A stretch of 64,000 nt of DNA, from the IMG/VR virus record IMGVR_UViG_3300045988_173642, positions 35,986 through 99,985 of that record. One strand, given 5' to 3'. The stretch's first letter is position 1. Every line of letters begins with the position of its first letter. The stretch is from a virus. A model generated the notes under the pieces. That model was not told the DNA's origin. It did no database searches and worked only from the letters and a program-made list of their open reading frames with translations. Positions 14,165 through 64,000 of this stretch are shown one piece after another. Position numbers and translations under genes: made by a program.

Positions 14165-14410
14165 TCAAAGCACCGCAAATTCCTGTTGCTTTTGGTCGCG
14201 ATGTGCCTTGATGTATTGTTTGATTTGCTGGATGATGTCGTTTTTTTCTTCGGCCGTTATGTAAGCTTCTAAATCGACGTAACCCATTCCTTTCGCACAT
14301 CGAAAATAATAGAAATCATCTTTGACCGATTCCAAATACAACAGAGTGTCATTAAACCTCGTCAACTCTTTACAGACTTTATTGGCTTTATCTAAATCTT
14401 CCTGTTTCAT
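14165..14410 (-). CDS. hypothetical protein
   Basis: 81-aa ORF with a 4-nt overlap with the upstream gene (coupled). Confidence 0.55.
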   Translation of the reverse strand: MKQEDLDKANKVCKELTRFNDTLLYLESVKDDFYYFRCAKGMGYVDLEAYITAEEKNDIIQQIKQYIKAHRDQKQQEFAVL

Positions 14411-14862
14411 TGTTCCAGTATTAATGGTTTAACTCTTAATCTGCATCCCATCGCATCTAACAAGGCTTGCAATTCATGAACGCCGTGTATGCAGTTCAAA
14501 ACCATTCCGACCTTCCTATCCACGAAACATCCGGGGAAAACAAAAGGGCAAAATCCGTCTCCGTCCACTGATTTTCGGATGCCGATTAACTTGTCATCAA
14601 ATAATCTAACCATCAAAGGACCACCATACACATAGTCCCAGCCGTGCGCCTTCAATATGGCCTCACTCAATGGAAACGGCGACATACTGAGTGCTGATGT
14701 TATGCTATTTTGTGTGCCGCCTTTTTCGTAGATTTCCTTATGGCGTATCATTCCACTTATACTATCAACACCAAGCACGACGGAATACACGTAGCTATTA
14801 AAATGATTATTGTCTTGCACGACGATGTCGCCAATACGCAATGAATTGATGTTAATGCTCAT
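14407..14862 (-). CDS. hypothetical protein, paralog of 15644..16105
   Basis: 151 aa. It shares IRIGDI., ISG.IRH.E.YE..GTQ, MSPFPLS..LLKA.GW and VHELQALLD blocks with the 153-aa ORF 15644..16105. Confidence 0.7.
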   Translation of the reverse strand: MSININSLRIGDIVVQDNNHFNSYVYSVVLGVDSISGMIRHKEIYEKGGTQNSITSALSMSPFPLSEAILKAHGWDYVYGGPLMVRLFDDKLIGIRKSVDGDGFCPFVFPGCFVDRKVGMVLNCIHGVHELQALLDAMGCRLRVKPLILEQ

Positions 14863-14877
14863 AGCTTTTGTGATTTA

Positions 14878-15468
14878 TCATTTCTTAATCAGGTTGAAGT
14901 CCGCCAAAATTTTGATGAATTGTTTGCCACAATACGTGGCGAGATCATTGCTCTTAAAGCAAAGGCAAGAACCGAAGCTCGCATCCGTACACGAGGGGGA
15001 GTAAATCGTACCCGCATAAGCGAAGCCCGCCCAGTCTCCTGAATAGTCGCCTGTTGATATGAGGTGTCGGTCGGCTTTCCATTCGTCACTCTTCTCCGAC
15101 AGTTCTTCTTCCGTCCATAGCGCGAACCAAGGAAACCAACGCCGCTCGTATTTTGTGAACAGAGGTTTCCAACCCTCATTCAGGGCGGCGGCGATGATAC
15201 AAAGCTTCAAGTATGCAATAAAGTCGTGACCGTCACTTGTAAAATTTCCGCTTTTCACAATCGCATGATATTGCTCTACGAAAAGGTTGTCTTCTCCCAA
15301 CTCACGGCAAGCGTCCTCAAAGGTCTTCACACGTTCTATAATCGGGCGATTTGCGACTGTCTGTGCCTCTGTTTCTTTCAATTCGGGTAAGAGAGCAAGA
15401 AGTACTTTTTTGACGCTCTTGTCGGCGGCTTTCAAAGCAGCTTTTGCGTTTTCAATATTGATTTCCAT
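14878..15468 (-). CDS. hypothetical protein
   Basis: 196-aa ORF between the two paralogs. No motif recognised. Confidence 0.6.
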   Translation of the reverse strand: MEINIENAKAALKAADKSVKKVLLALLPELKETEAQTVANRPIIERVKTFEDACRELGEDNLFVEQYHAIVKSGNFTSDGHDFIAYLKLCIIAAALNEGWKPLFTKYERRWFPWFALWTEEELSEKSDEWKADRHLISTGDYSGDWAGFAYAGTIYSPSCTDASFGSCLCFKSNDLATYCGKQFIKILADFNLIKK

Positions 15469-15643
15469 AAATACTGTTATTTTTTGGTTGTTTTCTTTGA
15501 TGTCTTCTTTTGGGGTTCGGCAGCGGGCTGTTTTATTCCGCCCGTTTCAGGGTCAGCACCCACAAGGGCTTGCGCACCCATTTCCTGAGCGATAGCGGCT
15601 GCAGCTCTTTAGAGATTCTCGTATTCTGTAATATCTATGATTG

Positions 15644-16105
15644 TCAGGGTTTGATTTTTACTCTTACTCTTGATATATCTCTTATCTTCCACATATCAAG
15701 CAGCGCTTGCAGTTCATGCACAGAGTCGATTTCGTACATAAACATCGCATCGTGCATTATTTTTGAACTATCTGGAAACAATATCGGGCAGAACGCATCA
15801 TAAAATAACGCAGAAGATATAAGTCCGATGGTAATAGGCTCAAAATCTGCAAAAAGCATGCTTACTCCATTTACTGATGACTTCTGCCATCCGTTTGCTT
15901 TCAGTAATTCTACTGAAAGCGGAAACGGCGACATATCTTCGAATGAAGAAATAGCCATTTGTGTACCTTCATATTCATATACCTCTCTGTGACGAATAGT
16001 ACCGCTGATGTTGTCAATACCTTCAACGATAGAGTATTTATAGCCTTCGTACTTGTTTTCTTTGGTGATAATATCACCAATTCTTATATCACTGATGTTT
16101 ATCAT
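15644..16105 (-). CDS. hypothetical protein, paralog of 14407..14862
   Basis: 153 aa; conserved blocks as listed for 14407..14862. Confidence 0.7.
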   Translation of the reverse strand: MINISDIRIGDIITKENKYEGYKYSIVEGIDNISGTIRHREVYEYEGTQMAISSFEDMSPFPLSVELLKANGWQKSSVNGVSMLFADFEPITIGLISSALFYDAFCPILFPDSSKIMHDAMFMYEIDSVHELQALLDMWKIRDISRVRVKIKP

Positions 16106-32821: not shown

Positions 32822-33694
32822 TTATTCTGGCATACTTTCCAGTAATTCGATGGTGAACTGCTTATAGTCCAATCCAACGCGACTATAAGGCGCATAGGTA
32901 AATATATCCTCATTTAACGCCTGCGCTTCCACCATCTTTGTATCACGGCGTGTATAAGAATCAAACATATAGTCGTTGAACTTGCCACCGAGGTATTGTT
33001 TAAACTGCTTCGTCGCATTCGTCTGGTCGTTGCTCATGACCATCAATAAGCCGCGAACCTCCAAGTAAGGGTTCAAATCTTCACGTGTCTCACTGACCGC
33101 CGCAATGATGTCGGCAATGCCCTTCGTTGCCAACATCTCCAGCTGCACGGGCAATACCACGCTCGAAGCGGCCGTTAAGGCATTAAACGTCAACAGAGAC
33201 ATGGCTGGCGGGCAGTCAATCAAAATGTAGTCAAAGGCATCCAACGCATGGGTAACGCCCTCTCCTGCCAGTTCGTTGCCTTTCATTTCCTTCAGCGGCC
33301 GGGAAAGGATTTTACAAAGGGCTTTTCTGGGTACGGACATTTGATTCAAAAACGGGTCAATGCCAATCAGTTTTCCACTCGCTGGCGCAAGATAGATGCC
33401 TTCACGCATTTGGTAAACAGGTAACTGACCCTGCTGCACAATTGCATCATAAACCGTTGGTAAATCCGCACTCTGCATCTCGCTCCAGCCAAACAGGAAG
33501 GAGACACAAGCCTGCGGGTCAAGATCAATAATTAAAACACGTGGAAGACAGGATGACCCGTCGGCGTTCTTGCCAAAATATCCCTTGCCAAATCTTCTGA
33601 GGCCCGTTGCAAGGCTTTGCACCGTTGTCGTCTTGCCCACCCCACCCTTGTGGTTGACAAAGGCAAGCACTTCTTTTAATCGCTTAGTTTCCAT
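32822..33694 (-). CDS. parA: ParA/Soj-family partition ATPase
   Basis: Deviant Walker A FVNHKGGVGKTTTV, plus IIDLDPQ and LIDCPP motifs. Confidence 0.9.
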   Translation of the reverse strand: METKRLKEVLAFVNHKGGVGKTTTVQSLATGLRRFGKGYFGKNADGSSCLPRVLIIDLDPQACVSFLFGWSEMQSADLPTVYDAIVQQGQLPVYQMREGIYLAPASGKLIGIDPFLNQMSVPRKALCKILSRPLKEMKGNELAGEGVTHALDAFDYILIDCPPAMSLLTFNALTAASSVVLPVQLEMLATKGIADIIAAVSETREDLNPYLEVRGLLMVMSNDQTNATKQFKQYLGGKFNDYMFDSYTRRDTKMVEAQALNEDIFTYAPYSRVGLDYKQFTIELLESMPE

Positions 33695-50209: not shown

Positions 50210-53200
50210 TTAGATTTGCAATTGGAAATCGTAAGAGGCTCCATCGTCTTTCTGCTTCCACGTGAGTTTTCCAGTCTTGTCTTGTCGGCCAGAGGTGAAG
50301 TGATAGAGGCGTTCAAAATAGGCGACATAGTCGGGCGTTGTGCCCATGTCTGGCGTGATGATGGTGGTGTCAGTGGGGTGTACCCCATTGTTGACGGCTG
50401 CATACCATCCGTCTGGAATCAATTCGCCCGTCGGCAAGTCTTGCGCCAGTTGGGCGTTTTGGTAATAAAGACCAAGCTGCTCAGGCGGCGTGTTGGAACT
50501 CGTGCCGCCATACCAATAGACCACGGCGGTGTCGGTCTTCGTCTGTTTTGGGAAAAACTGATAATAGGGTAGGGCATCTGGGTTGCCAATGTAAGCCACG
50601 GCCAACCAAACGTCATAGGCATTGTTGACGCTGATGATTTTCAAGCGCGAGATGGGAAAATAGGCCGCAGTGGTGGTGATTTTGTCAAGGCCGTTGGGGC
50701 CGAGATTATACATCTTCTGTCCGTCTTTACTGTAGAACTCCAAGATAGCACAACCGTCGGCATCTACGCCCACTTTGATATTTGGGAAAGCCAACGAGCC
50801 AAACATCTCTACCACGCCATCATGCACCTCTACGTGGCTGTCGTTGCCGTCAATGCGCATATTGCCGTTGATGACGCTGAATTTATTGCCCGACCAGATG
50901 TCGCCCTGGCGATTGACGCGCATAACGGCATCGGCAGGTGTTGCCCCACCAAACCAAAGCGGATATTCCATGTCTGTGCCGCCGCCAAAAGCACCGTAGG
51001 GCGTGCCGTTTTCGTCAGTGATCTGAATTTGACTGACCTGCAAGAATTGGATAAAGGCCGTCATGATGTCGGCGAAGGAGGTGCGCAGGGGGCGCAGGTC
51101 ATTGATAGGTTCCCAGAAGTCGTTGCCCGTTCCAAAAGGTTTATTCGCTGACTCAGACAGGATGCCATTGTGCGAAGGGCGGGCGAGATACCATTTCGGC
51201 GTGCCGCTCTTGAGGTCAGTCACACTGACTTCGTCGAGATAGCGGTTGCCGTCGGGGGCCGTGGTGTCGCCACTATCGTTGCGATAGAGCACGCCCGCTT
51301 CCCATTCTCCGCGACGCACTGTCACGCCAGTATATCCGCGTGGGCCTGGGGCACCAGGGGCGCCAGTGTCGCCCTTCGCGCCGTTTTGCCCGTCTTCGCC
51401 TTCGCGGTTTTGCGCGATGGTGGCGGTGGCGGTGGCGGTGCCGTAGTCCGTGACAAGCGTGAAGGTCATGAAAGCATCCTCAGGCGTTGCGCCGTCCACT
51501 TCCACGCCCACGAAGCCTTTCAGCGTGACGTGGTAGGTCAGGCTCTTACCATCGGCGGCAACAACGGCCGTGTACGTCAGTTCAACAGGCGTGGTGGCGT
51601 CGCCCGTTCCATAAGTGGCCTTTCCGCTACGCACATCGAGCGGCTGCGTGCCGGAAAACACTTGTGCCGTGATGTCGAAAGAGATGTCATCGGGGGCGGC
51701 CGTATCGTACCAGTCCGAGATGGCCACACTGATGATGTTCTTATTCAGCACAACGGTCAAGGCCGTGGGGTCGGCAGCATGGAAGGCCACGTTGCTCACG
51801 CCATAGGTACCATCGGAATAAGTGTAGAGCCATTGTTGCCACACCACGCGATTGGAAGGCGAAGGCGTCAGCGGTTCTGTCTGCCATTCGCCTTTGACGT
51901 AGGAGAGGTGGTCTTCAGCAACGCGGATGCCGTCGGGCAGGATTTCCACGGCAGGTGTGGAGAGGAAATAGAGCTGCTGCGTCACGATGGAGGGAACGCG
52001 GTCGAACTGGTCGACCATGCCCCACATATAGATGTTGCCCGTGGCTATACCTTCGCCCTCCAGTTCTTTGAGCGCTTCGACAAACTCCTTCTTCTCTTTG
52101 TCCCAAACACGCTGCAACATTGTGAAGCCGTTGAGCCAGCCGATGATGAGCTGCATGTTGTCTTGCGTGTACGTCCAATTGGTCATGCCGGCCAAGTGCA
52201 GCTGATAAGTCGTCGTGGTCAAGCAAGAGCGTTGGCGCGTGCTGTCGGTCTCATTGGCATAGCAGGCAAAGTGCATCGCTGGCTGCGGATGTGATTCATC
52301 CGTCCATCGGTTGCGGTCTTCCGCAGGGAGGTCGGCACAGGTGGCGGCACGCAGTTCATAGCGGAAGAACTGGTTGAGGGCTGGCGTGCCATCCGCTGCC
52401 GTCTGCTCCTTAATTGGGGCAGGCAACGTGGCTGGCGTATAAATTTCTTTTACGCGAAAATAGATGGTCGTGAAGCCTGCGAAATGGAAGTTGCCATCGT
52501 GAGGGTCAGAGGTGGAGAGGTCGTTGCGGCGGTTGGTGAAATGAAACACACCCTGGCATTTGTCGTTGACGGCCACGGCACCCACTTCCCCCGTTTCCAA
52601 TTTCAATTGCACCACGCCTTCGAGCGAAGTAAATCCGAGCGCGGAGAGCGCTTCATCGGCACCCGTCCACACCTGCTGGATGATACCGCCGCCCTGCGTC
52701 TGCCATTTATTCCCAACTGTGATGGTCGTGCGGTTGAAACGCAGTTCGGGCACCTCCAGGAATGACCTTGCAACGATGCCTTCAAATTCAGCATTGCCGT
52801 AGAAGTCGACCTTCGCGCCTTCAACGCCTTTGTTGAACGTACCGACCGTCAAATCGCCATGCAACGTTGTCGGTCGTCGTTTCTCTGGCGTTCCAACCGT
52901 CAGAGCGCCCTCCACGAGTGCATCCCCGTGGATGACCGTGTTGCCGAAGATGTCGGCCGCGCCGTTGACCTTCAGGTCGTGCATGGCGAGGTTGAAGGGC
53001 GTTTCGTCGTCGTGGCGCTTCGAGAGCGCATTGTCGTCCATGAGCTTCGGCGTGACGATTTTCGTGGCATCGTCTAAGGGGGTGTCGGCATCCCCGATGC
53101 CCGTTATCTCGCCCTGCTGTCCTTCAAACGTGATGCGGCCGCCGGAAACAATCTTCAGCGTGCTAACGAAGAGGTCGCGGAACACCGTGCCTGCCTTCAT

Positions 53201-53737
53201 CGTGAGGTCTTTGAGGAACGTCAAAGTTTGGTCGAAAACATCATAGCGATACCAGTCTGTTTCTGCTGGCCCCGCGTTGATGGCTTCATCCGAAGAAAGG
53301 TAGCCCGACACGATGCGCTGCCGCCAGACGCGCTTCTCTGTGCCGTTTTCGCCAGAGGAGGAGAGAATGCCTTGCAGGAAGATATAGTAATACTCCTCTG
53401 AGCCTATTTGCTGCTCTTCGGCGTTCCGTCCGTAGATGTCAATTTCCTCAGAGGGGAACACGATGTTAGCAGCGTTGCCAACGGATTCTGTGCGCGGAAT
53501 GGCGGCATAGACATATTTTTCTGTGTGTGTGTTGAACACTGTCGGAGAGGCTTGCAGTCGCCAGCGGCGGTAATTATGCCCGGCATCATAGTCGATGATG
53601 CCTTTGACGTACACAAGAATTTGCGCATTACCGACACACGAGGCCTGCACGTAGTCGGGCATGGCCAGGGCGTTGCGTTCGATGAAGAGCGCGTCGGGCG
53701 AAATCCAATAATCTGTGGTCGTTGCTTTCGTTGTCAT
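50210..53737 (-). CDS. tail fibre protein with a short collagen-like segment (1175 aa)
   Basis: Gly-X-Y run GEDGQNGAKGDTGAPGAPGPRGYTG (51326-51400) in a large beta-rich ORF in the fibre module. The upstream 99-aa ORF overlaps it by 4 nt. Confidence 0.6.
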   Translation of the reverse strand: MTTKATTTDYWISPDALFIERNALAMPDYVQASCVGNAQILVYVKGIIDYDAGHNYRRWRLQASPTVFNTHTEKYVYAAIPRTESVGNAANIVFPSEEIDIYGRNAEEQQIGSEEYYYIFLQGILSSSGENGTEKRVWRQRIVSGYLSSDEAINAGPAETDWYRYDVFDQTLTFLKDLTMKAGTVFRDLFVSTLKIVSGGRITFEGQQGEITGIGDADTPLDDATKIVTPKLMDDNALSKRHDDETPFNLAMHDLKVNGAADIFGNTVIHGDALVEGALTVGTPEKRRPTTLHGDLTVGTFNKGVEGAKVDFYGNAEFEGIVARSFLEVPELRFNRTTITVGNKWQTQGGGIIQQVWTGADEALSALGFTSLEGVVQLKLETGEVGAVAVNDKCQGVFHFTNRRNDLSTSDPHDGNFHFAGFTTIYFRVKEIYTPATLPAPIKEQTAADGTPALNQFFRYELRAATCADLPAEDRNRWTDESHPQPAMHFACYANETDSTRQRSCLTTTTYQLHLAGMTNWTYTQDNMQLIIGWLNGFTMLQRVWDKEKKEFVEALKELEGEGIATGNIYMWGMVDQFDRVPSIVTQQLYFLSTPAVEILPDGIRVAEDHLSYVKGEWQTEPLTPSPSNRVVWQQWLYTYSDGTYGVSNVAFHAADPTALTVVLNKNIISVAISDWYDTAAPDDISFDITAQVFSGTQPLDVRSGKATYGTGDATTPVELTYTAVVAADGKSLTYHVTLKGFVGVEVDGATPEDAFMTFTLVTDYGTATATATIAQNREGEDGQNGAKGDTGAPGAPGPRGYTGVTVRRGEWEAGVLYRNDSGDTTAPDGNRYLDEVSVTDLKSGTPKWYLARPSHNGILSESANKPFGTGNDFWEPINDLRPLRTSFADIMTAFIQFLQVSQIQITDENGTPYGAFGGGTDMEYPLWFGGATPADAVMRVNRQGDIWSGNKFSVINGNMRIDGNDSHVEVHDGVVEMFGSLAFPNIKVGVDADGCAILEFYSKDGQKMYNLGPNGLDKITTTAAYFPISRLKIISVNNAYDVWLAVAYIGNPDALPYYQFFPKQTKTDTAVVYWYGGTSSNTPPEQLGLYYQNAQLAQDLPTGELIPDGWYAAVNNGVHPTDTTIITPDMGTTPDYVAYFERLYHFTSGRQDKTGKLTWKQKDDGASYDFQLQI

Positions 53738-54104: not shown

Positions 54105-54626
54105 TTAAGGTTTTTCATCGGACATTCCCATGTGTCGCGACAAAGAAAGGTGGTGCTGGAGGATGCGGATGTTATGGCGCAAATCGTCGAGCGTGGCGTG
54201 CTCTACGTCAATCATTGACACCAACACACAAACGTCATGCTCCGCTTCGGTGCGTGAATGATGGGCGTCTTGAGCGGGCGTGGGGGAAGGAGGAGAGGGG
54301 AGTGGTTGCACTGATGTTCCAGTCTGTTCCGCCAGTTCTTCCGACAACGCAAGCACATAATGTTTACCAGAATCATCCGTGCTGATTTCCACTTCCGGAT
54401 GCGCCTTCTTCAATCGTCGCAAAACGCCATCAATGGCGGAGCAGGGGATGCCAAGCTGATGAACAGTGTGTCCAGCAAGCGGAACGGCGCGGATGCGGTA
54501 GCCTGTGATGTTCTGCATGAACGCAGCGCAGGCGTTGAAAGCATGGAAAAACAATCCTTGCTGAATGAGATAGAGCCTGCGGCCATCCGTCTGTTCCTGC
54601 TCCGCAATGGCTTCAGCCACTTTCAT
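54105..54626 (-). CDS. MutS-domain-I-like small protein (candidate DGR accessory factor, MSL-type)
   Basis: RRLYLIQQGLFFHAFNACAAFMQNITGYRIRAVPLAGHTVHQLGIPCSAIDGVLRRL parallels E. coli MutS [32 protein letters not shown]...PMAGIPYHAVENYLAKL. The mismatch-binding F-x-E is FFH here. It overlaps the upstream ORF by 4 nt. Confidence 0.4.
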   Translation of the reverse strand: MKVAEAIAEQEQTDGRRLYLIQQGLFFHAFNACAAFMQNITGYRIRAVPLAGHTVHQLGIPCSAIDGVLRRLKKAHPEVEISTDDSGKHYVLALSEELAEQTGTSVQPLPSPPSPTPAQDAHHSRTEAEHDVCVLVSMIDVEHATLDDLRHNIRILQHHLSLSRHMGMSDEKP

Positions 54627-55081
54627 GCCTCTTCTATCTTGAAGGCCGGTTTGGCCAATGCCTTGCAGCGTTCGGCAAAGGCTGTCACTTGCTCCAGGTC
54701 GGTTGTGTCACCAAGCAATGCCTTGCGGTGAGCGCACAACTCTTCTGCATAAGAATATCGAGCGCCAATGAGATAAGCGGCCAAGGTATGATAATCTGAG
54801 ATGCGGTACACGGCCACAAGTTCTTTGATGAATGCCGCGTCAAGACTGTCAAATAAGCCCTGCTGATAAATGGTCTGCAGCAATGTCTGTGCCGTCATTC
54901 GTCCTTCATGCGAAATGGCCAGTGTGGTGCAACGAACGCGCTGCTCTCCTGCATCATTCTTATAAGATGAAGGGGAGAGGTTGATGGTCAAGAACTCCGT
55001 GTTCTTGGAATAAGAGCGAACGATGTGGCGGGGATTTTCCGTCAAATCTTCGCATTGGCGAAGGGGAATTTTTTCTCTCAT
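54623..55081 (-). CDS. hypothetical protein in the DGR operon
   Basis: 152-aa ORF, coupled by 4-nt overlaps to the RT upstream and the MutS-like ORF downstream. Confidence 0.6.
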   Translation of the reverse strand: MREKIPLRQCEDLTENPRHIVRSYSKNTEFLTINLSPSSYKNDAGEQRVRCTTLAISHEGRMTAQTLLQTIYQQGLFDSLDAAFIKELVAVYRISDYHTLAAYLIGARYSYAEELCAHRKALLGDTTDLEQVTAFAERCKALAKPAFKIEEA

Positions 55082-56553
55082 AAAATAGATGTTTGAATCA
55101 TTTTACATTTGTTTCGCAAACGAATCCGCTCAAAATGGCCATGAATGTAAAAGAACTCGTAGAAGACATGTTCAAAAATAGATAGTGTCGTTTTACGTAA
55201 GAGGTAAGACCTTTTATTCTTGAAAAAACCGAGGTACGAGTTGATGACTTGTTCCATGCGACGAAGGTCGCACAAGGATATAATGGATTTTTCGCGCAAC
55301 ATTTGGTTGAATCCAAAAACGCGCTCACGGAAACGAGCAACGGTGCGGCTGGACAGGTATATACGATAGTAACGGATGTAGGCTCCAACAAACATAACAC
55401 CATGTGAAGCTAATTGAAAATGATATTTGGTGACGTGAAGCGTAATACCAAGTTCAGACGACAGAAACAAGCGAGCGTCAATGATGAAGGCTTTTAAAGC
55501 AGACTTGCTGATGCAAATGACAACAAAATCATCTACAAAACGCGTGTAGTAGACCTCAAATCCACGGAGTTTGAACCATTGAATTACGAAATCATCAAAG
55601 AATGACATAAGGAAATTCACGAACACTTGCGTTGTGATATTCCCAATTGGCATTCCGAAGGCAACATCGCTGCCGAAAAGCGACTTATGGCGCTCAATAT
55701 GCTTGTGCCATTCATCTGGCGATGTGTTGAACACACAATTTTGCTCGGGACAATGAAACACGATGGTTTTGGATGCGGCGAACAATTGTTTCAAGTATTG
55801 GCCTTTGTATTGTTCGCGGATGAACGGTTCCAGTTTTGACCATAATATACGCTTGTCTATCGACATGAAGAACGAGACGATGTCGCCCTTAAACACCCAT
55901 GCAGGGCGGCTATAATTGCAAGTTGCCTTCTTGATGTTGTCATATACGGCCTTCTGAGCCGCAAGGGTGCCAAATCCTTTTCGGCAATTGAATGACACAT
56001 TACCTTGTTCAATAAAACGCCGCTCAAAATACGGATTGAGAAAAAGAATAATGAAATGATGAACGATGCGATCGCGAAAGCAAGCCGCAAAAACCTCTCT
56101 ATATTTCGGGTATTTCACAAGGAAACACGTGCTGACGCCTGGCTTATATGCTCCAGTATATAATTCATGTGCCAATGCTGGCAAATCATGTTCGGCTATC
56201 TCGCAATAGTCGATACATGCACGGCTGGTGCGTTTACGCTGGCAACAATCGTCAAAAGCAAAAAGCACAAGATCAAGAAAGTCGGTAGGAATATCAAAAG
56301 CGACGACAGGACGAACCACAAACCCGTTGTACTTATTGTTGTTGTTGATGTTGCCATTGCCGAAGTTGCTGTTCCAACTGTTGTTGCGGTTATACTCCGT
56401 GGCGCTCCATCGGTTGGCCTGAACGTTTACTTTGGGCATTGAAATAGCATAACCACTCCAGACATTTTCATACGAACCATTGCCGTATGAACATAAATCT
56501 AAATAGGTATGCCCACCTTTTAACAGTCCTCTCGGCTCTCTGTCACAATTCAT
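55078..56553 (-). CDS. DGR-type reverse transcriptase
   Basis: Motifs FRDRIVHH, VSFNCRKGFGT, GDIVSFFMSID, GMPIGNITTQVFVNFLMSFFDD (the DGR hallmark I/LGNxxSQ region) and YTRFVDDFVVI (YxDD). The ATG-started ORF runs through the TR; the RT body begins near residue 90. No ATG lies between the TR and the RT body, but an in-frame GTG is at 56268. Confidence 0.9.
   Translation of the reverse strand: MNCDREPRGLLKGGHTYLDLCSYGNGSYENVWSGYAISMPKVNVQANRWSATEYNRNNSWNSNFGNGNINNNNKYNGFVVRPVVAFDIPTDFLDLVLFAFDDCCQRKRTSRACIDYCEIAEHDLPALAHELYTGAYKPGVSTCFLVKYPKYREVFAACFRDRIVHHFIILFLNPYFERRFIEQGNVSFNCRKGFGTLAAQKAVYDNIKKATCNYSRPAWVFKGDIVSFFMSIDKRILWSKLEPFIREQYKGQYLKQLFAASKTIVFHCPEQNCVFNTSPDEWHKHIERHKSLFGSDVAFGMPIGNITTQVFVNFLMSFFDDFVIQWFKLRGFEVYYTRFVDDFVVICISKSALKAFIIDARLFLSSELGITLHVTKYHFQLASHGVMFVGAYIRYYRIYLSSRTVARFRERVFGFNQMLREKSIISLCDLRRMEQVINSYLGFFKNKRSYLLRKTTLSIFEHVFYEFFYIHGHFERIRLRNKCKMIQTSIL
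56296..56422 (-). repeat. DGR template repeat (TR), 127 bp
   Basis: Matches 57194-57320 at 114 of 127 positions. All 13 mismatches are plus-strand T in the TR, which is A on the coding strand. Read in frame it is rich in AAY codons (NRNNSWNSNFGNGNINNNNKYNG). Confidence 0.93.
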
Positions 56554-56577
56554 AAGACAAGTGATTTAAATGATTAT

Positions 56578-57039
56578 TTAAGCACTTACAGAATTACTAC
56601 CTTGCGAAAATCTGACCAGAGAAGATGCGCGCCATGCTGAAACCTGTAAGGAACAGGAAGCGACGAGCGACTTAATCTTCTTAAAATCATCATTACTGAT
56701 GCAGCCCAATGTCTTCATGATGCAAATAATAGATTTAATAGCATCTATATGAGCTGCAGCAATAGTCAGCTGCGGCACTCGTGAATACATATCAGCAAAT
56801 GCAATAGACAAACTCACCAATAAACCCGCGCATTCTGAATACATCGGATTGACCACAGGACGATATTTGACTGGACACGTCTTGTTGATTTGCGCCAAGA
56901 CGAGATACAATTGCTGAGAATCGCGAAACACCTGCTGCTGATGGATGGTCCGAACTTTCTCTTTCTTGAGCTTTTTACTTCTTTCTTTTTGTTCTGTTGT
57001 TATTTGTATATATTGTGGTTCTTTGTTGTCATTTACCAT
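56578..57039 (-). CDS. avd: accessory variability determinant (Avd)-like four-helix-bundle protein
   Basis: 153 aa between the target and the TR, with a basic N-terminus (KERSKKLKKEK). The helical body with FRDSQQLYLVLAQINKTCPVKYR...LSIAFADMYSR...IDAIKSIICIMKTLGCISNDDF fits the Avd / four-helix-bundle family pattern. Confidence 0.6.
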   Translation of the reverse strand: MVNDNKEPQYIQITTEQKERSKKLKKEKVRTIHQQQVFRDSQQLYLVLAQINKTCPVKYRPVVNPMYSECAGLLVSLSIAFADMYSRVPQLTIAAAHIDAIKSIICIMKTLGCISNDDFKKIKSLVASCSLQVSAWRASSLVRFSQGSNSVSA

Positions 57040-57073
57040 ACAATTTCCAATTTTATAATTAAATTGTTCACCG

Positions 57074-57081
57074 CAAAGTTA
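57074..57081 (-). promoter_or_regulatory. Bacteroidota promoter for avd-TR-RT (-7 TAACTTTG on the minus strand; -33 at 57102-57105)
   Basis: Plus strand caaagtta with a 20-nt spacer to CAAA; 35 nt upstream of the avd ATG. Confidence 0.6.
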
Positions 57082-57114
57082 ATAACAATTTTTGATATAA
57101 ACAAAAATAATTCA

Positions 57115-57171
57115 GCCGGCTTACGCCGGCAATGGCATTTTCGTTGAGCGACGCGCTAAAAAGCGCGTCGC
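57115..57171 (-). terminator. two GC-rich hairpins immediately downstream of the VR and target stop
   Basis: gcgacgcgc-taaaaa-gcgcgtcgc (57148-57171) has a 9-bp stem and lies 7 nt after the stop. gccggc-ttac-gccggc (57115-57130) has a GUAA loop on the minus strand and is followed there by a T-rich run. Confidence 0.6.
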
Positions 57172-57178
57172 AAAAAGG

Positions 57179-60100
57179 TTAAAGGATGAAGGGAAAAGCG
57201 ACGACAGGACGAACCACAAACCCGCTGTACTTATAGCTGTTGTAGACGTTGCCATCGCCGAAGTAGCTGCGCCAACTGTAGTAGCGGTCATACTCCGTGG
57301 CGCTCCATCGGTGGGCCTGACGAGGATTGCGCACCGGACAGCCCAGATTGGCGTCTTTCGCGCGTTTCTGCAAGTTTGCATAGAAAGGGCGGCGAGCATC
57401 CGTCGGCTCATGCGGTCGCAGTTCGTTGCCTTCGTCGGAAAAATCCGCCGTTGGCGTACCAGTGTCAGATGGCGTCAGCGCACGGCTATTGCGGAAGAAA
57501 ATATACAGACGGAACATATCACCGCTGCCATGCAGATACCATTTCCCTTTTTCAAACCACGGCGAAAGGCCGTCAATGGGCTTGCCGCCATTGCTCGGCT
57601 CGAACAGGGAACAAGCGTAGGCGGCAGGATAGGCTAACTGACGCCATCGTTTGTCGCCGCCGATATTTCCAAGCGCCACGCAGAGATCGGCCAGCTCTTC
57701 CATCGTTTCTGGAATGATATGGTCGCGTACTGCGGGAAGGTAGTCGAAGATGGTGTGACCATCGCTATCTGTCAACAGTCCTTCCCCGACATATTGTGTC
57801 AGAATACGATTGGCATGTGCCACGATTGAGGCGGTGTCCTTTTTGCCATCCCATCTGTTGGGCGCAGTATTACCTTCATAGACCTTGAATCCGTCACTTT
57901 CGTTATCATCATAAGCCTGCAAGTCTTTGATGTAATACGTTTTTTCGCCTTTTTCGTCCACCATACCAACATCTGTACAATCATTACAAGCGGGGATATT
58001 CGTCAAATCGTCATCAGAGACGGATAATGCTTCAGCAATCACCTTGCGTTCGTCGGGTGTAAATCCCAATTCACCAGTGCCTTGCGGATAAATACCCCAT
58101 GAAAACTCACTGATGGAGTTAGCCTTATCTGAGGACGTAATGGTCAGTTCTTCCACGTTTTCGATCAACACTTCATACAGTGTTTTGCCCGAATTATATT
58201 GCGCCGAGATTTCTTCATCCTGCAAATATTCGTTCAAAAGATTCGTTGGTAGGTCGGCATAAGGCGTCACCTTATATACCCAGCCAATAACCTTTTTACC
58301 CGGATATAACACGGAATCAAACTCACCATTATAGTAAGCGAAATCGCCTAATTTCGGAATGCGGTTGAAAAGTTTCAACACCACTGATGTGCTAAGCGAT
58401 TTTCCTCCAATCAAGGTAGCTGTAACAGTCAACGTCGCAGTTGGGTTATTACTTTCCTCGCCGACCGATGGCGCATGCAACACGCCAGTCTCTGCATCCA
58501 CCGTCACATTAAAATCATTCTCAGAGATAGACCACCTTAAATCCGTGAAGTTGTTGGCCATCGTTGGCAACACGGAACATTGGTAAGGATAATCTCCTGG
58601 TTCGGCAATAACAAAGCGTTGCGTAATGATATTCAAGCCTGTCACGCTGCGCAAAGAATAAGTGATATACAAATCATTATTCTCAGAGTCGATTTCGCCG
58701 AACTTGCGCAACAAGGCGAGTTTCAATTCTGCATCCACATTCTGCCCTTCTGTCACGGCAATTCGTCCATACAAAGAGCAATATAGAATCCCAGTTATAT
58801 AGAATAATACGCTTGGCGCAACATCTGTCCAATCAATTCCATCTATGCGCAACGTGCTCAACTTTGCGCCAGCCTCACTACATCCACGCACCAAAGAGCG
58901 CGTGTCAAAACCGCAATTGAGGGCGGTGATCGAAGTTAAACGAGCGTAGCCATCCAGCGTGAGCGTCTGTAACTGCGGCATATCGCGCACTTCAAGTTGT
59001 GAGAGCTCCGCACCGAAGCGAGCCACGGTAAGTTGTGGTGAGGACGGCATACGCACCTGCCCGTATTTCGTTCCGCGAAGGTCGAGTGTTTGCAGTCGTG
59101 AAGCCTTAGAGAGGTTGAATGTTCCGCTGGATGTGCTAACACCATTCAGAGACAGACGCTGCAAATTGGCGGCATCTACATCTATCTGCTTCGGCGCAAA
59201 CGCACTGCTACCTGCTTTAGGCTCAGCAATAAACTCCGTCATTCGGCGTCCCTGAATGGTGAAGTTATTATTGCCAACCACCATGTTACCCACGTTACCG
59301 ATGGAACGATAATAGTTAGTGGCAGCAAGTCCGACTGATGAGTCGCCAGGAATCGGTGTGGAAGCAGGATTTACTGTGAAGGCATAGTGTCGCCCCGGTA
59401 TCATGCGGAAATGCGGGTTGATGAGCGCACGGTCGCGCACGCCACAGGGATAGAGGTACTGATGAGGAACAAGGTCAAATGTGTATTCGCCTCCCGTGCG
59501 CCCAGAACCAGGCGTGAACTGCAAACCAGCGCTGGCGTCCACCAATCCAGTAGAACCAGTGTTCACACCACTTGAGAAGTCACCCCATGCCGCATACGAA
59601 CAGACAAGAGCCAGTCGGCGTGTCATATACTGAATCTCGCTCTCCAACTGGTCGCCAATGCCCTGCGTGACGGCGAGAATACCACGCGCCTGGTTGCCGT
59701 AACTCTCATAGCCCCACGATGCGGGCCAGTCGTATCGGATGCGCTGCTGTTCCGCCCATGCTACCTCGGCAAAGTACTTTTGAACTGAGAAGAAATACTT
59801 GTGTATACAACCGTATGGCGTTTGGCGTTGTGTCGTTGTAAGGCCGTCTATATTCTCATTCGCCCCAACCAACGTACACATGGCCGTCAACACTTCACGC
59901 ATATTGGCCGGCAATGCCGTTTGGTCGAGCGTTTCCCATGCCGCCTCCATGACATTGAACAAAGCCGATGCCGTGCCTTCATAGTCCTTCTGCTTTTTCA
60001 GTCCGTCCTTCGTGTCTTGAACGTCGAAATAACGAGAAAGGAAATACACCTTTGTCTGTCGTCCGTTGTTGTCAGTCTTAAAGATGGTATCAAGGTCATC

Positions 60101-63100
60101 TTGATAGAGCCAGCTCAAGCCTGTAGTTATATCAATGGTATAATACGTGTTCTTCGAACAATTGTCGGTACCAGCAATCATGAAGTTCACAAGATTATAA
60201 TGTACTTGATGATTCTTCTTGTTGAGATACTTTCCGCAGTGCTCGTTGAACGATGCTGCGATAGCCATTTGGAAACGAGTGTTCAACTTAGCATAGTCGC
60301 CTACATCCTCACTCTGCTTCCACTCCTCGTAGGTGGCTTTCGTGATGGCATCCGTGGCGAGATTACGAACGCCAGCCTTATATCCGTCGGAATCCGTCCA
60401 AGTTCCTGCATCAACGAATTTACCAGTGACATAGTTGAAACGCAGCAGATGAAAAGCTTCGTCACCATCGCGCAACCAATATTTCGTGGTCTGCATCTCG
60501 TCGAGCAATTGCGTATCGGCATCCGTTGCTCCAACGGCCGTGGCTCTGTCATATACGTTGGCATAATGCGCGTCAAACGCGGCGCGGTCGCCACGGAAAT
60601 ACTTCATACGCACATCGTGGGCATATATGAAGTTGCAGTAACGACGGAACAAAGCATCGTTCTTTGCCACAGGCGTTCCGTCATCGTTTGTCTTACCCAA
60701 CGAATACTCAAACGACTTGATGCCGTTATACACCCATGATTCATCATCCACGTTATACGTCACATCCTCGTCGGCCGGTACGCGAAAGTCACACAAAGGC
60801 AAGTTGTTATTCAAACCTTCAAAAGCAAACATTTTGCTCTTGTCGTAGCCCCACGTAGCCTTGTCACACTTGCCTGAACCAAATGTACCGAAGCCGACGA
60901 ACACTGGTTCCTTCTCGCCTTCTGGCTGGTTGAAGAAATAGTAATTGTCTTCATACACCGCAAAACGCGCACCCGTTTTGTTTGCAAACCAATCCGGCAG
61001 TTCGTCCTTGCATACAGTCTTCATCACATCGTTGTACAACCGCGTTGCGCCCATCTTGTGCGACTGCATCGGCGAAGCATAATTAATTTTATTGACGAGC
61101 TTCGTTGCCTTTGGACCACCGATCACAGGTGTATAGAACTGGCCGTGGTACATACCATTACCGTCAATCCAACCATCCAACACGTCAATCTGAAGGCGTT
61201 CTTTCTCCAGATCGCTCAATGTGCTGACAGCATCGCCCTGAATCTGGTTGCCGTCAAGATACAATGGGTTAGCCGCCGCCACCTCTTCTGTGAAGTTAGA
61301 CATAGAAGCCTTCCATCCGAAATCTTTGTGAAGTGTGGAGAATAGAATCACAATGCGATACGTCACCTTGTCCAGCTTCGTCTGCTCGTTGTTCCACCAA
61401 TACGTGTTGGCCGTACTTCCTTGCGCCGTGTTCATCAAACACTTCTTGCCGCCGAGCGTTCCCGATACATAAGCCAGATAAGCCGCCTTGCCGATAGTTC
61501 CAGACAATTCCGGAATATATTTCCCATTGTTGTCGTAATAGTCAATTCGCCAATAGCAAGCATAGCCAACCTTCTTGTCCTGGTTCATTTTATAGTTGTC
61601 TGTCCCGACGAGTGTCAGACAACGTTTGCCCTTCTCCTTCACCTTTCGGTAAGAGATACGTCCATTTCCGTCCAAGATGTCGTTGCGCTGACGGATGGCA
61701 TTCTTTGTCTCGGCGTCGGGGCGTGTGGCTGTGAAATTCTGAAGCACGTTTTGCGCGGACAACGTCACGCCACGGTAACAACGAATGGTGTAGATGTCGA
61801 GGTCGCATGAAGGATGGCCAAAGCGGATGCCGCCGTGTCCTTCGCCCTGAATCCATACGCCGTTGGTGTCCACGCTATATTGAACGGCACGCTGCGGTTT
61901 GCCGTTGACATATACCTTCACGGTGGGGCGGTTAGACGGCGTTTTATTGGGTGTCTGCCATTTAAATTCATCACTGCCCTTAGCCACAAGCGCTGGTGTG
62001 AGCGTCACAACGAGATGCACGCGTTTATCCTCCTCAAAAGCGAAATCTTGGTCATCCTCGTTCTGCTTTTCCTGCGCCCAGACCGCGCCAGTGAGCGGTT
62101 TGATGATGATGCCCAATTTCTCCAACGTGCTTTCGATGGTCTGAGAGATACTAATGACAGGGTCATCCTCTGCCGTAATGTTGCGCACGGCAAACTCCAT
62201 CTCCAACGACATGGCCGCAGATGGGTTTGTTTTAAACGCTTCAAATGGTTCGTAACCGATGGTCAGCGTGCGTCCGCTCGGAATGCGGAGCACCTTCACG
62301 CCATCATCATCCTGCATCCAGGCATCGCCAGTTCCGGAGAAACCATTCCAAACCGAAGGCACTTCCTCCTGCGTCTGCTTGTTGATGATGGTTTGATAGT
62401 GCGTCTCAGTGTTGTTGCGCACCTTTGGGTCAAGGTAGAAATGCGCACCCGCAACGGGCGAATAGTCGTTCTTGTTATCCACCGTGAACACCACAAAGCG
62501 ATTGCCTTGGCTCTCACGCAAGAAGTTTACAATCTCTTCGCCATTGTAACGAAACACACGCAAGTAAGCCTGATAAGACGCCGGACTCTCGCCCGTAGAT
62601 GAATTTTCAATTTCGATGGTAGTGTCAATCGGGTAACGCTCACCAACCACGGCTTTCTGTTCCGACACGAAATAAGAAGCCGTATAATCCAAATCGCCGT
62701 CGCCAGCGTTCGTGATACGGATGCTGACGGGCAGAGGGTCTGTGGCGGGCAGGGTAGGGGCTTCCGCGCTCTGAGGCACCCACACCGCAAAGTAGGAAAT
62801 GACCGTGCGCACATAGTTCTCCACCACGCTCTGCACGCCCTGTAACATGAGATAAGGCTGCGCCAGTTGCGACGGGTTTGCCGTTGCCTCGTTCACCACC
62901 ATAAATCGGTTGACCTGCACCTCTGACGACAATTCACCGCCCATGCCATCGTCACACGTCACCCATGCCGTCACGGTATGCACGCCATGCGACAATAATC
63001 CATAAGCCGTAATCTCCTGCTGCGTCCACGAATAAGGATTAGCTTCCGGCCGCTGCTCATCAGCCAGAAACGTCTTAGGCTCCATCGTCCATGTGCCAGA

Positions 63101-63877
63101 CGCACCCGTCATCGTGACGTGCAATTTCTTGTCAACGGCCCCCATCACGGAGAATGAAAACGGGAATCCTCCGTCTGAGGCAAGGATGCGTTTCGACCAG
63201 TCTGTCAGGTTTTTGACCGTTAGGTTGACGGCATTGATGGAGTAGATAAGGTCACCAAAAAACTCACGCTGCACGCCGTTTTCATCCTCATAATAAGAAG
63301 TCACTCTGATGCGCACATTCTGACGCCCCTCTGTGAGATATTTTCCGACATCCACACTCACTGGATAGGATGCTGCGCTCTCCGCGTCATAGTTTTCCTC
63401 TTGAGAAACTATATTAGTCTGCACGTAATGGTTTTGCCAGGTGTCAGAACCTTCCTTTTTGATGTCAACGCGCAACGTTCCTGGCACATCGCGATAGTTC
63501 ACGCGGTCGCCAAGCTGCGTAATCTTCAGTGCCATGTAGCGTACGTTGACGGTCAAGGCATCGCCCACCTTCACGTTTCGGTCGCCTTTGAGGTCAGAAG
63601 CCAAACGGATGGCATAGCTATCGCTTTCCACCATCTGATTAAACGACACTAAACCATTTGCGTCTGGCTCATAAGTGATATTATTAAACTGAACAGCCTT
63701 AACGCTTTTTTTCGCGTCTTGTTGCAGTTCTTGTATAGGCGTTACAATTTTCTGCACGAAATCCTCTGCCGTCAAATATTCATTCGTCGGCAAGCCTGCC
63801 GAGTCAATTTCTTCTCGTGCTTCTTCGTTGTTGGTCTTACGAAGTAAGTCGTTGATATTGGTAAAATCCTGTGCCAT
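57179..63877 (-). CDS. giant tail fibre / receptor-binding protein, DGR target (2232 aa)
   Basis: The C-terminal 42 codons form the VR, inside a DUF1566/C-type-lectin-like end (GKWYLHGSGDMF ... RWSATEY...FVVRPVVAF). Upstream are Big_2-like and LRR-like (LQRLSLNG..LQTLDLRG..LQTLTLDG) segments and a CotH-like stretch (AGTDNCSKNTYYTIDITTGLSWLYQDDLDTIF). Confidence 0.8.
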   Translation of the reverse strand: MAQDFTNINDLLRKTNNEEAREEIDSAGLPTNEYLTAEDFVQKIVTPIQELQQDAKKSVKAVQFNNITYEPDANGLVSFNQMVESDSYAIRLASDLKGDRNVKVGDALTVNVRYMALKITQLGDRVNYRDVPGTLRVDIKKEGSDTWQNHYVQTNIVSQEENYDAESAASYPVSVDVGKYLTEGRQNVRIRVTSYYEDENGVQREFFGDLIYSINAVNLTVKNLTDWSKRILASDGGFPFSFSVMGAVDKKLHVTMTGASGTWTMEPKTFLADEQRPEANPYSWTQQEITAYGLLSHGVHTVTAWVTCDDGMGGELSSEVQVNRFMVVNEATANPSQLAQPYLMLQGVQSVVENYVRTVISYFAVWVPQSAEAPTLPATDPLPVSIRITNAGDGDLDYTASYFVSEQKAVVGERYPIDTTIEIENSSTGESPASYQAYLRVFRYNGEEIVNFLRESQGNRFVVFTVDNKNDYSPVAGAHFYLDPKVRNNTETHYQTIINKQTQEEVPSVWNGFSGTGDAWMQDDDGVKVLRIPSGRTLTIGYEPFEAFKTNPSAAMSLEMEFAVRNITAEDDPVISISQTIESTLEKLGIIIKPLTGAVWAQEKQNEDDQDFAFEEDKRVHLVVTLTPALVAKGSDEFKWQTPNKTPSNRPTVKVYVNGKPQRAVQYSVDTNGVWIQGEGHGGIRFGHPSCDLDIYTIRCYRGVTLSAQNVLQNFTATRPDAETKNAIRQRNDILDGNGRISYRKVKEKGKRCLTLVGTDNYKMNQDKKVGYACYWRIDYYDNNGKYIPELSGTIGKAAYLAYVSGTLGGKKCLMNTAQGSTANTYWWNNEQTKLDKVTYRIVILFSTLHKDFGWKASMSNFTEEVAAANPLYLDGNQIQGDAVSTLSDLEKERLQIDVLDGWIDGNGMYHGQFYTPVIGGPKATKLVNKINYASPMQSHKMGATRLYNDVMKTVCKDELPDWFANKTGARFAVYEDNYYFFNQPEGEKEPVFVGFGTFGSGKCDKATWGYDKSKMFAFEGLNNNLPLCDFRVPADEDVTYNVDDESWVYNGIKSFEYSLGKTNDDGTPVAKNDALFRRYCNFIYAHDVRMKYFRGDRAAFDAHYANVYDRATAVGATDADTQLLDEMQTTKYWLRDGDEAFHLLRFNYVTGKFVDAGTWTDSDGYKAGVRNLATDAITKATYEEWKQSEDVGDYAKLNTRFQMAIAASFNEHCGKYLNKKNHQVHYNLVNFMIAGTDNCSKNTYYTIDITTGLSWLYQDDLDTIFKTDNNGRQTKVYFLSRYFDVQDTKDGLKKQKDYEGTASALFNVMEAAWETLDQTALPANMREVLTAMCTLVGANENIDGLTTTQRQTPYGCIHKYFFSVQKYFAEVAWAEQQRIRYDWPASWGYESYGNQARGILAVTQGIGDQLESEIQYMTRRLALVCSYAAWGDFSSGVNTGSTGLVDASAGLQFTPGSGRTGGEYTFDLVPHQYLYPCGVRDRALINPHFRMIPGRHYAFTVNPASTPIPGDSSVGLAATNYYRSIGNVGNMVVGNNNFTIQGRRMTEFIAEPKAGSSAFAPKQIDVDAANLQRLSLNGVSTSSGTFNLSKASRLQTLDLRGTKYGQVRMPSSPQLTVARFGAELSQLEVRDMPQLQTLTLDGYARLTSITALNCGFDTRSLVRGCSEAGAKLSTLRIDGIDWTDVAPSVLFYITGILYCSLYGRIAVTEGQNVDAELKLALLRKFGEIDSENNDLYITYSLRSVTGLNIITQRFVIAEPGDYPYQCSVLPTMANNFTDLRWSISENDFNVTVDAETGVLHAPSVGEESNNPTATLTVTATLIGGKSLSTSVVLKLFNRIPKLGDFAYYNGEFDSVLYPGKKVIGWVYKVTPYADLPTNLLNEYLQDEEISAQYNSGKTLYEVLIENVEELTITSSDKANSISEFSWGIYPQGTGELGFTPDERKVIAEALSVSDDDLTNIPACNDCTDVGMVDEKGEKTYYIKDLQAYDDNESDGFKVYEGNTAPNRWDGKKDTASIVAHANRILTQYVGEGLLTDSDGHTIFDYLPAVRDHIIPETMEELADLCVALGNIGGDKRWRQLAYPAAYACSLFEPSNGGKPIDGLSPWFEKGKWYLHGSGDMFRLYIFFRNSRALTPSDTGTPTADFSDEGNELRPHEPTDARRPFYANLQKRAKDANLGCPVRNPRQAHRWSATEYDRYYSWRSYFGDGNVYNSYKYSGFVVRPVVAFPFIL
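57194..57320 (-). repeat. DGR variable repeat (VR), 127 bp
   Basis: Counterpart of the TR, ending 12 nt before the target stop codon. The last 31 nt (coding direction) are identical to the TR and contain no A (an IMH-like G/C/T stretch: gggtttgtggttcgtcctgtcgtcgctttt). Confidence 0.93.
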
Positions 63878-64000
63878 TGTGATATTTTTTGATGCTTATT
63901 TTTCTGGAAATTATCATGCGTTTCCTATGCAAAACGGAAGGGGAAACGCATGGGGAAAACAGGTAACGTGAGTTTGCCACTGCTTTCAAACTCTCCAATC

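Follow-up and report, generated by a model that had tools for sequence, protein, structure and literature searches.

The window analyzed here, 64,000 nucleotides (nt) of viral DNA corresponding to positions 35,986 to 99,985 of the IMG/VR record IMGVR_UViG_3300045988_173642, contains a diversity-generating retroelement (DGR) whose target gene encodes a protein of 2232 amino acids (aa). This protein is very probably what a working phage DGR diversifies and a member of a class of giant targets of Bacteroidales phages, in which CotH-type, leucine-rich repeat (LRR), immunoglobulin (Ig)-like, and C-type-lectin (CLec) parts are joined in a single polypeptide. The open reading frame (ORF) of the target (57179..63877, minus strand, marked (-) below, with positions given in the window unless another sequence is named) is intact and begins with an ATG start codon according to the ORF list and its translation. 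The system is a DGR: the adenine pattern of its template repeat (TR) and variable repeat (VR), the motifs of its reverse transcriptase (RT), an Avd-like accessory protein, and diversification restricted to the VR were all found.

The DGR Cassette and Its Variable Repeat

The TR (56296..56422 (-)) and the VR (57194..57320 (-)) form a direct repeat of 127 nt with 90% identity, and all of the 13 mismatches between the two copies fall at TR adenines, of which there are 38, with none at any other base. The VR corresponds to aa 2186-2228 of 2232, which bears out the proposal of the first-pass annotation, made from the letters of the window, that the VR caps a giant ORF. The TR contains 13 AAY codons and has one partner only within the window, where a search for a second VR with the TR adenines treated as wildcards found none. 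In the last 43 residues of the target, 24 codons of the VR bear an adenine and 13 of these are AAY asparagine codons, and the theoretical repertoire of the VR is ~10^22 proteins. Among 15 natural variants of the target that are 96-98% identical and derive from independent contigs, the column entropy is 1.14 bits at the TR-adenine codons versus 0.044 elsewhere, a ~25-fold difference. The DGR is active in nature, and variation in the population occurs almost only at the TR-adenine codons.

Two kinds of change in the same region are of a different type. In some of the near-identical variants (P0058, P0064, and others), the alignment of aa 2186-2232 reveals a VR that differs in length by 1-2 residues, and a V2221G substitution falls outside the TR adenines. 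Neither is a product of adenine mutagenesis, and both probably reflect strain-specific TR alleles. DGR templates are usually stop-proof at their variable codons. In this TR, the AAG (Lys) codon for aa 2216 (56329-56331 (-)) is the sole codon that can be mutated at an adenine to a stop codon (TAG), and all other variable codons are stop-proof under adenine mutagenesis.

The cassette is arranged on the minus strand in the order target, Avd, TR within the 5' end of the RT ORF, and RT. The Avd-like accessory protein (153 aa; 56578..57039 (-)) has a nearly full-length match to phrog_3206 (“Avd protein of DGR”; E=1.4e-4) and a match to Pfam bAvd that falls below threshold (E=0.016), and its positional counterpart in the cultured Bacteroides phage BS-TP1 bears the annotation of a four-helix bundle protein. 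The RT ORF (55078..56553 (-)) matches Pfam RVT_1 (E=3.5e-12) and phrog_1423 (E=8.5e-60). It contains the motif IGNITTQ (aa 303), in which T replaces the S of the DGR-type [LIV]GxxxSQ, and the motif FVDD (aa 339), the counterpart of YxDD. The only in-frame ATG codons before the RT domain are M1 and the alternative start M39 (nt 56439), and since both are upstream of the TR, which lies in the 5' part of the ORF, translation would run through the TR and give the RT an Asn-rich extension at its N terminus. Similarly, the gene caller applied to a 98%-identical contig starts the RT upstream of the TR (a 453-aa call). The TR-inside-RT arrangement, seen at L001 as a TR (14531-14662) within the coding sequence 14407-15888, is that of BS-TP1 as well.

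BPP-1-type DGRs carry a target-recognition hairpin after the VR. At this place in the window, 7 nt past the stop codon of the target, the sequence reads as a GC-rich hairpin whose perfect stem of 10 bp is closed by a TTTT loop of 4 nt (57148..57171 (-); DNA fold z-score -4.8), which by analogy is a candidate target-recognition hairpin. A second hairpin (57115-57130 (-)) of the form GCCGGC-GTAA-GCCGGC is followed by a T-rich run and is terminator-like; both hairpins lie between the target stop codon and avd.

Integrity and Distribution of the Target Gene

The target has 56 homologs, nearly all of which are full-length (2100-2350 aa) and collinear with it from end to end at identities ranging from 98% to ~30%, and near-identical copies are present on many independent contigs of 82-101 kb. 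The protein gp27 of BS-TP1 is 25.5% identical over 89% of the target query. In a phmmer search against 1.84 billion representatives, the core of the target (aa 760-1540) matched 323 clusters defined at 50% identity, 278 of them at E<=1e-10, and the proteins of these clusters are almost all 1900-2900 aa long, the matched core occupying a constant place in them around residues 750-1550. The possibility raised by the first-pass annotation that the ORF is an assembly chimera, and with it the possibility of a fusion of separate genes, was ruled out and is left with a vanishingly small probability, because the full-length target is conserved among the homologs, the independent contigs, the 323 clusters, and a cultured phage.

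Direct database matches to the nucleotide sequence and the whole protein are scarce. No match was obtained by megablast of positions 55000-64000 against GenBank phages or by a scan of the target protein against NCBIfam, and a phmmer search of the whole target protein against PDB sequences returned nothing at E<=1. The conserved N-terminal region (aa 169-751; 61625..63373 (-)) matches PHROG 24896, a family of unknown function (E=1.7e-54), and has no Pfam or PDB match in Pfam, phmmer, and family-profile searches. The N-terminal ~750 residues presumably attach the protein to the virion.

The CotH-Like Kinase-Fold Core

The middle of the target contains a CotH-like atypical kinase-fold core (~aa 900-1445; 59543..61180 (-)), which is common to the 323 clusters and is predicted from an AlphaFold2 model and Foldseek searches. 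The model of aa 760-1540 was built with the family alignment and has a predicted local distance difference test (pLDDT) score of 90.4 and a predicted template modelling (pTM) score of 0.91. When this model was searched against the PDB with Foldseek, the only matches below 1e-3 were 5jda/5jd9, the CotH kinase of B. cereus (E=4e-4, probability 1.0). Matches in BFVD, a collection of predicted viral structures, included the “Spore coat protein H kinase fold” of Myoviridae sp. ctrCp2 (E=1.7e-11), the “CotH kinase protein” of Siphoviridae sp. ctHAs12 (E=6.8e-11), gp353 of Bacillus phage G (E=1.3e-10), and an Internalin-like protein of the crAss-like phage cr52_1 (E=1.8e-7). At the sequence level, three homologs have marginal matches to Pfam CotH (E ~2e-4; 1 of 21 and 2 of 21 members in two samples of the family). 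One of these, in P0055, covers aa 1037-1147 and profile positions 153-248 of 322, which corresponds to aa 1203-1315 of the window target and overlies the motif described next.

The CotH-kinase-like signature that the first-pass annotation had quoted is present close to the coordinates given there, and the fold match to 5jda/5jd9, the CotH-named BFVD matches at 1e-10 to 1e-11, and the Pfam alignment of P0055 agree with its interpretation. Its two parts are DNCSKNTYY (aa 1238-1246; nt 60140-60166) and WLYQDDLDTIF (aa 1256-1266; nt 60080-60112), and together they would make up a catalytic loop and a metal-binding motif, with T1237-D-N-x-x-K-N-x-Y1245 separated by two beta strands from D1260-D-x-D1263 (60080..60166 (-)). 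All of 42 homologs, and likewise 21 representatives at a greater distance, share the pattern T-D-N-x-x-K-N-x-Y...D-D-x-D without variation. In the core model, D1238...N1243 is followed by two beta strands and then by D1260/D1261, which is the canonical order of protein kinases, and D1238 is separated from D1261 by 23 residues, the same spacing as that between D228 and D251 of B. subtilis CotH. D228 and D251 are the residues whose mutation inactivates the B. subtilis enzyme (PMC7821199). By sequence alignment, D1238 and D1261, which do not vary in the family, fall within the stretch that matches positions 153-248 of the Pfam CotH profile, and they are the candidate counterparts of this catalytic Asp and metal-binding Asp.

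Upstream of this motif, the core contains an invariant KINYASPMQSHK motif (61055..61090 (-)) with the residues K930, N932, Y933, A934, S935, Q938, and H940, which the model places where a beta strand ends and a helix follows, and K930 is a candidate nucleotide-binding lysine. A further segment, GFGTFGSGKCDK (aa 995-1006; 60860-60895 (-)), is glycine-rich and Walker-A-like (GxxxxGK) and is located in a beta-hairpin of the core; its residues G995, G1000, K1003, and D1005 show no variation among family members. The predicted model supports a CotH-like fold of the core, with residues that look catalytically competent, at a level of sequence similarity below that of Pfam membership. The core is followed by a small beta-sandwich (~aa 1451-1525; 59303..59527 (-)), which is visible as strands in the model and, from weak Foldseek matches to carbohydrate-binding modules (CBM35/CBM4, E ~0.1), is a possible carbohydrate-binding module.

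Predicted LRR, Ig-Like, and Lectin Modules

A second AlphaFold2 model, covering aa 1500-2232, has a pLDDT of 92.1, and the two models together comprise 1470 residues; the two regions that the first-pass annotation had singled out for structure prediction, the core and the C-terminal part, were thus both modelled with high scores. The first module of the C-terminal part is probably a short LRR solenoid of ~5 units (~aa 1560-1700; 58778..59200 (-)). About five xLxxLxLxG units are visible by eye in the span first proposed to hold the repeats (58880-59175, aa 1568-1666), and the model of this span has the regular short strands of a beta-solenoid pattern. Pfam LRR_4 matches the target below threshold (E=0.028, aa 1571-1603, 15.1 bits against a cut-off of 27) and is matched in 7 of 21 family members, and LRR proteins in the PDB match the family profile at E ~0.6 only. 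The repeats proposed by the first-pass annotation are probably present, with support from the family and from the model.

The second module is an Ig-like (Big_2-type) beta-sandwich (~aa 1736-1835; 58373..58672 (-)), identified by a Foldseek search with the model of aa 1500-2232. The best PDB match of this model is the Big_2-CBM56 structure 7quz (6.5e-4), further matches are the Ig-like domains of phi29 gp8, T5 pb6, and the DT57C baseplate as well as cadherins, and the family profile likewise gives a weak match to cadherin-23 over the Ig-like region. No sequence match to Pfam Big_2 was found in the target or in the sampled family members. The Big_2-like domain that had been read by eye at 58400-58620 (aa 1753-1826) accordingly corresponds to an Ig/Big_2 domain at the level of the fold.

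The third module is probably an enlarged C-type-lectin-like/DUF1566 (Lcl_C) domain that contains the VR (~aa 1846-2232; 57182..58342 (-)). In the model, this domain is large, ~390 aa, with long helical insertions. Pfam Lcl_C (PF07603) matches the target itself at E=0.075 (13.8 bits against a cut-off of 34.9), is matched in 12 of 21 family members (best E=3.2e-8), and is a precomputed match in seven homologs. The family profile matches PDB entry 8q4e, which is cited in a study of Legionella Lcl/DUF1566, over the strands of the VR (E=0.011), and it is the last ~47 residues, the VR itself, that match both the Lcl_C profile and 8q4e. The sequence GKWYLHGSGDMF (aa 2111-2122; nt 57512-57547, given as 57521-57547 in the first-pass annotation) contains the conserved motif W-x-L-P/H...G-x-L. 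The DUF1566-like end is in this way probable, with its support at the family level.

Tail Context and the Exchange of Tips

In BS-TP1, the gp27 gene is located between genes for a baseplate hub and a tail fibre on one side and the Avd and RT genes on the other. Distant paralogs of the target (P0054, P0055, and P0056; L003 8001-13592 and L004 8001-14279) retain its N-terminal region together with the CotH-like core, and a BspA-type LRR_5 end replaces the lectin and VR. The P0055 gene is found 6 kb downstream from a gene for a tape-measure protein, and the P0056 gene adjoins one for a Phage_fiber_2 protein, its contig also carrying a crAss-type capsid gene (Crass_capsid); neither has an RT nearby. 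In the window itself, a tape-measure gene occupies 415-6003 and a fibre-like gene with collagen repeats 50210-53737. Across the family, Lcl_C and LRR_5 tips occur in a ratio of 12:3 in a close set and 6:8 in a distant set, each being a sample of 21 proteins. This combination of a conserved chassis, an exchangeable tip, and a conserved position in the tail module supports, by inference, a role as a distal-tail adhesin, since both tip swapping and the tail-module position match the pattern of receptor-binding proteins.

Several results weigh against the reading of the target as a tail-borne protein with a CotH-like core and a lectin tip. The 2232-aa target has no match to Pfam CotH at E<=1, the best score for Pfam CotH (PF08757) among the homologs is 21.5 bits and falls below the gathering score of 23.8, and the family profile, when searched against PDB sequences, does not recover 5JDA even at E<=10. 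The geometry of the Foldseek match to CotH is modest, with a template modelling (TM) score of 0.43 on the target, a root-mean-square deviation of 12.5, and 9% identity. C-type-lectin and LRR structures are absent from the top 50 PDB matches of the aa 1500-2232 model, because Ig-like matches dominate a multidomain query. As for the tail, PHROG families of known function were matched by none of the eight upstream genes of the sister contig L002, and the location is based on gene order only. The term “fibre,” which the first-pass annotation had applied to the protein, was an assumption: the 1470 modelled residues are globular domains, and the position of the gene in a tail module is the only argument for a tail protein. 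By Pfam thresholds, the target is not a member of the CotH, LRR, or Lcl_C families, and the support for these assignments comes from the fold and from the family.

The gene context also bears on where the protein would act. It has been suggested for a related target that the host signalling is manipulated and that the kinase and the VR may be in contact (Roux et al., 2021; bioRxiv 10.1101/2020.04.01.020958). An effector of this kind would work inside the host, which it would either enter along with the phage DNA or be produced in late in infection. Host or phage proteins would be the substrates of its kinase, and the choice among them would fall to the DGR-varied lectin domain. The proposed contact between kinase and VR is in favor of such a role, as are the modelled parts, which are without fibre-like trimeric motifs, and the CotH family itself, a family of Ser/Thr protein kinases with spore-coat proteins as their substrates, which they reach from inside the mother cell (PMC7821199). 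The effector role is nevertheless improbable, given that the gene is always found in a tail, baseplate, or fibre module (BS-TP1, P0055, and P0056), that BspA-type LRR, Lcl_C lectin, and Ig-like modules are typical of surface adhesins, and that the paralogs exchange the tip and keep the core, as receptor-binding proteins do.

Possible Mechanism and Activity of the Core

If the target acts as an adhesin at the distal tail, its N-terminal ~750 residues would anchor it to the distal tail or baseplate, and its C-terminal lectin tip would bind a ligand on the host surface, probably a glycan. The DGR would re-tune the binding of the tip by mutagenic retrohoming, by analogy with Mtd of BPP-1. The CotH-like module may be an active phosphotransferase, a prediction made from the sequence because D-N-x-x-K-N...D-D-x-D is kept over the 323 clusters, and it would then act beside the ligand bound by the tip or on virion proteins during assembly. 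That the core is an active, virion-borne phosphotransferase re-aimed by the DGR-diversified lectin tip is a tentative idea with a rather low probability. If true, a retroelement would reprogram the target recognition of an enzyme. The chassis of this putative enzyme also occurs in other gut phages that lack a DGR at this gene and have swappable BspA-type LRR tips, one of them represented by a contig that encodes a crAss-type capsid protein.

The CotH-like module could instead be a catalytically dead pseudokinase that adds bulk as a scaffold or binds a ligand, with the whole protein serving solely as an adhesin or receptor-binding protein. Compatible with a dead module are its marginal resemblance in sequence to true CotH, the beta-sandwiches of carbohydrate-binding type and the lectin parts that surround it, and the lack of an obvious supply of ATP for an extracellular virion protein. 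Against this, two independent samples of the family, reaching down to ~21-25% identity, show no change in D-N-x-x-K-N, D-D-x-D, K930, or K1003/D1005, and pseudokinases usually lose catalytic-type residues, exactly those that are kept here. The pseudokinase is for these reasons considered unlikely.

Relation to Described Systems

The first-pass annotation held that a kinase-like or CotH module in the same polypeptide as a hypervariable ligand-binding tip would be a new combination for a phage receptor-binding protein. This is not the case, as giant phage DGR targets that combine CotH with a hypervariable lectin have appeared in surveys since 2014. CotH was listed among the Pfam domains of DGR targets of the Human Microbiome Project (Ye, 2014; PMC4159848). 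Category f1 of a later survey comprises 13 DGRs with phage neighbors and ~2000-aa targets that are alignable end to end and have weak matches to CotH and Laminin_G_3 as well as CLec3 VRs (Wu et al., 2018; NAR, PMC5758913). The viral target of PC_00012, 2284 aa in length, was modelled and has a CotH-like domain (Roux et al., 2021; bioRxiv 10.1101/2020.04.01.020958), and giant phage DGR targets with CotH beside a hypervariable C-type lectin were also described by Benler (2021; PMC8008677). The “domain group 3” targets exceed 2000 aa and contain motifs of the CotH (5JDA) active region, carbohydrate-binding motifs, and LRRs (Macadangdang et al., 2024; bioRxiv 10.1101/2024.11.15.621889). Cultured temperate Bacteroides phages were found to have DGRs that target ~2000-aa multidomain proteins, including gp27 of BS-TP1 (Gut Microbes, 2025; PMC12694917). 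A kinase role has been speculated on in earlier papers, and in the literature on phage CotH proteins only survey mentions were found, with no experimental study or assay of any such protein.

The target shares with Wu category f1, Roux PC_00012, and Macadangdang group 3 a length of ~2000-2300 aa that can be aligned throughout, a CotH-like part, weak CotH and concanavalin/Laminin_G matches, LRR or carbohydrate-binding parts, a C-terminal CLec VR, and an occurrence in gut Bacteroidales phages. No essential difference from these groups was found, membership being assigned by matching every described feature. As a further member of an already described class, the target is well preserved and under active diversification, and it introduces no new concept; the swapping of tips and the invariance of the catalytic motif across the family are shown in the present analysis. 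The nearest cultured system, BS-TP1 (gp27; PQ571274; PMC12694917), has the target, a four-helix-bundle Avd, an RT with the TR inside its coding sequence, and the location in a baseplate/fibre module in common with the window. Its genome is 111.7 kb, compared with ~91 kb for the closest contig of the window, and its gp27 is annotated as “hypothetical protein.”

More distant systems share individual parts. The BPP-1 DGR likewise has an Avd, a TR, and an RT, adenine-specific mutagenesis of a C-terminal VR with a C-type-lectin fold, a GC-rich hairpin after the VR, and a target in the tail module. The BPP-1 target Mtd is a trimeric fibre-tip protein of ~380 aa without an enzymatic domain, whereas in the window the lectin domain ends a 2232-aa protein whose core is kinase-like, and the TR forms part of the RT frame. 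Bacillus CotH (5JDA/5JD9; PF08757) is the sole significant fold match in the PDB and has the same Asp/Asn loop with a second Asp 23 residues further on; it is ~360 aa long, whereas the core in the window is ~550 aa with large insertions, shares ~9% identity with it, and sits in a protein of a phage structural module. The C-terminal domain of Legionella Lcl (DUF1566; PF07603; 8q4e) matches the strands of the VR and shares the GKWYLHGSGDMF motif, and Lcl binds sulphated glycans. In comparison with Lcl_C, the domain in the window is ~390 aa with long helical insertions and reaches 13.8 bits versus the 34.9 of the cut-off.

DGR targets are a natural example of programmable ligand binding, and in this class the variable binder is coupled to a conserved kinase-fold core that is common in human-gut Bacteroidales phages (323 clusters). 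The present example is useful for its precise domain boundaries and for the enzyme chassis found behind non-DGR LRR tips. Invariant residues for mutation are D1238, K1242, N1243, D1260, D1261, D1263, K930, K1003, and D1005, and the existence of cultured relatives (BS-TP1 and others) makes the role of the CotH kinase in a hypervariable phage protein testable.

Neighboring Genes

In the order of transcription, the target and the DGR genes are followed by small ORFs, all three of them conserved, of 152, 173, and 99 aa and then by a 1175-aa protein (50210-53737 (-)) with a short collagen triple-helix repeat at aa 780-804 and weak matches to tail-fibre PHROGs, which is probably a fibre gene downstream of the DGR cassette. 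The first two of the small ORFs, 54623-55081 (-) (152 aa) and 54105-54626 (-) (173 aa), are directly downstream of the RT and are conserved in the sister contig L002. Neither has a significant family match, the 173-aa ORF having a very weak match to MutS domain I (E=0.14), and at their position BS-TP1 has a DUF4376 protein. Elsewhere in the window, a ParA/MinD-type ATPase is encoded at 32822-33694 (-) (AAA_31, 3.6e-33). The related temperate phage is reported not to have been found integrated in any bacterial chromosome (PMC12694917, the BS-TP1 study), and this report and the ATPase together hint at an extrachromosomal (phage-plasmid) lifestyle.

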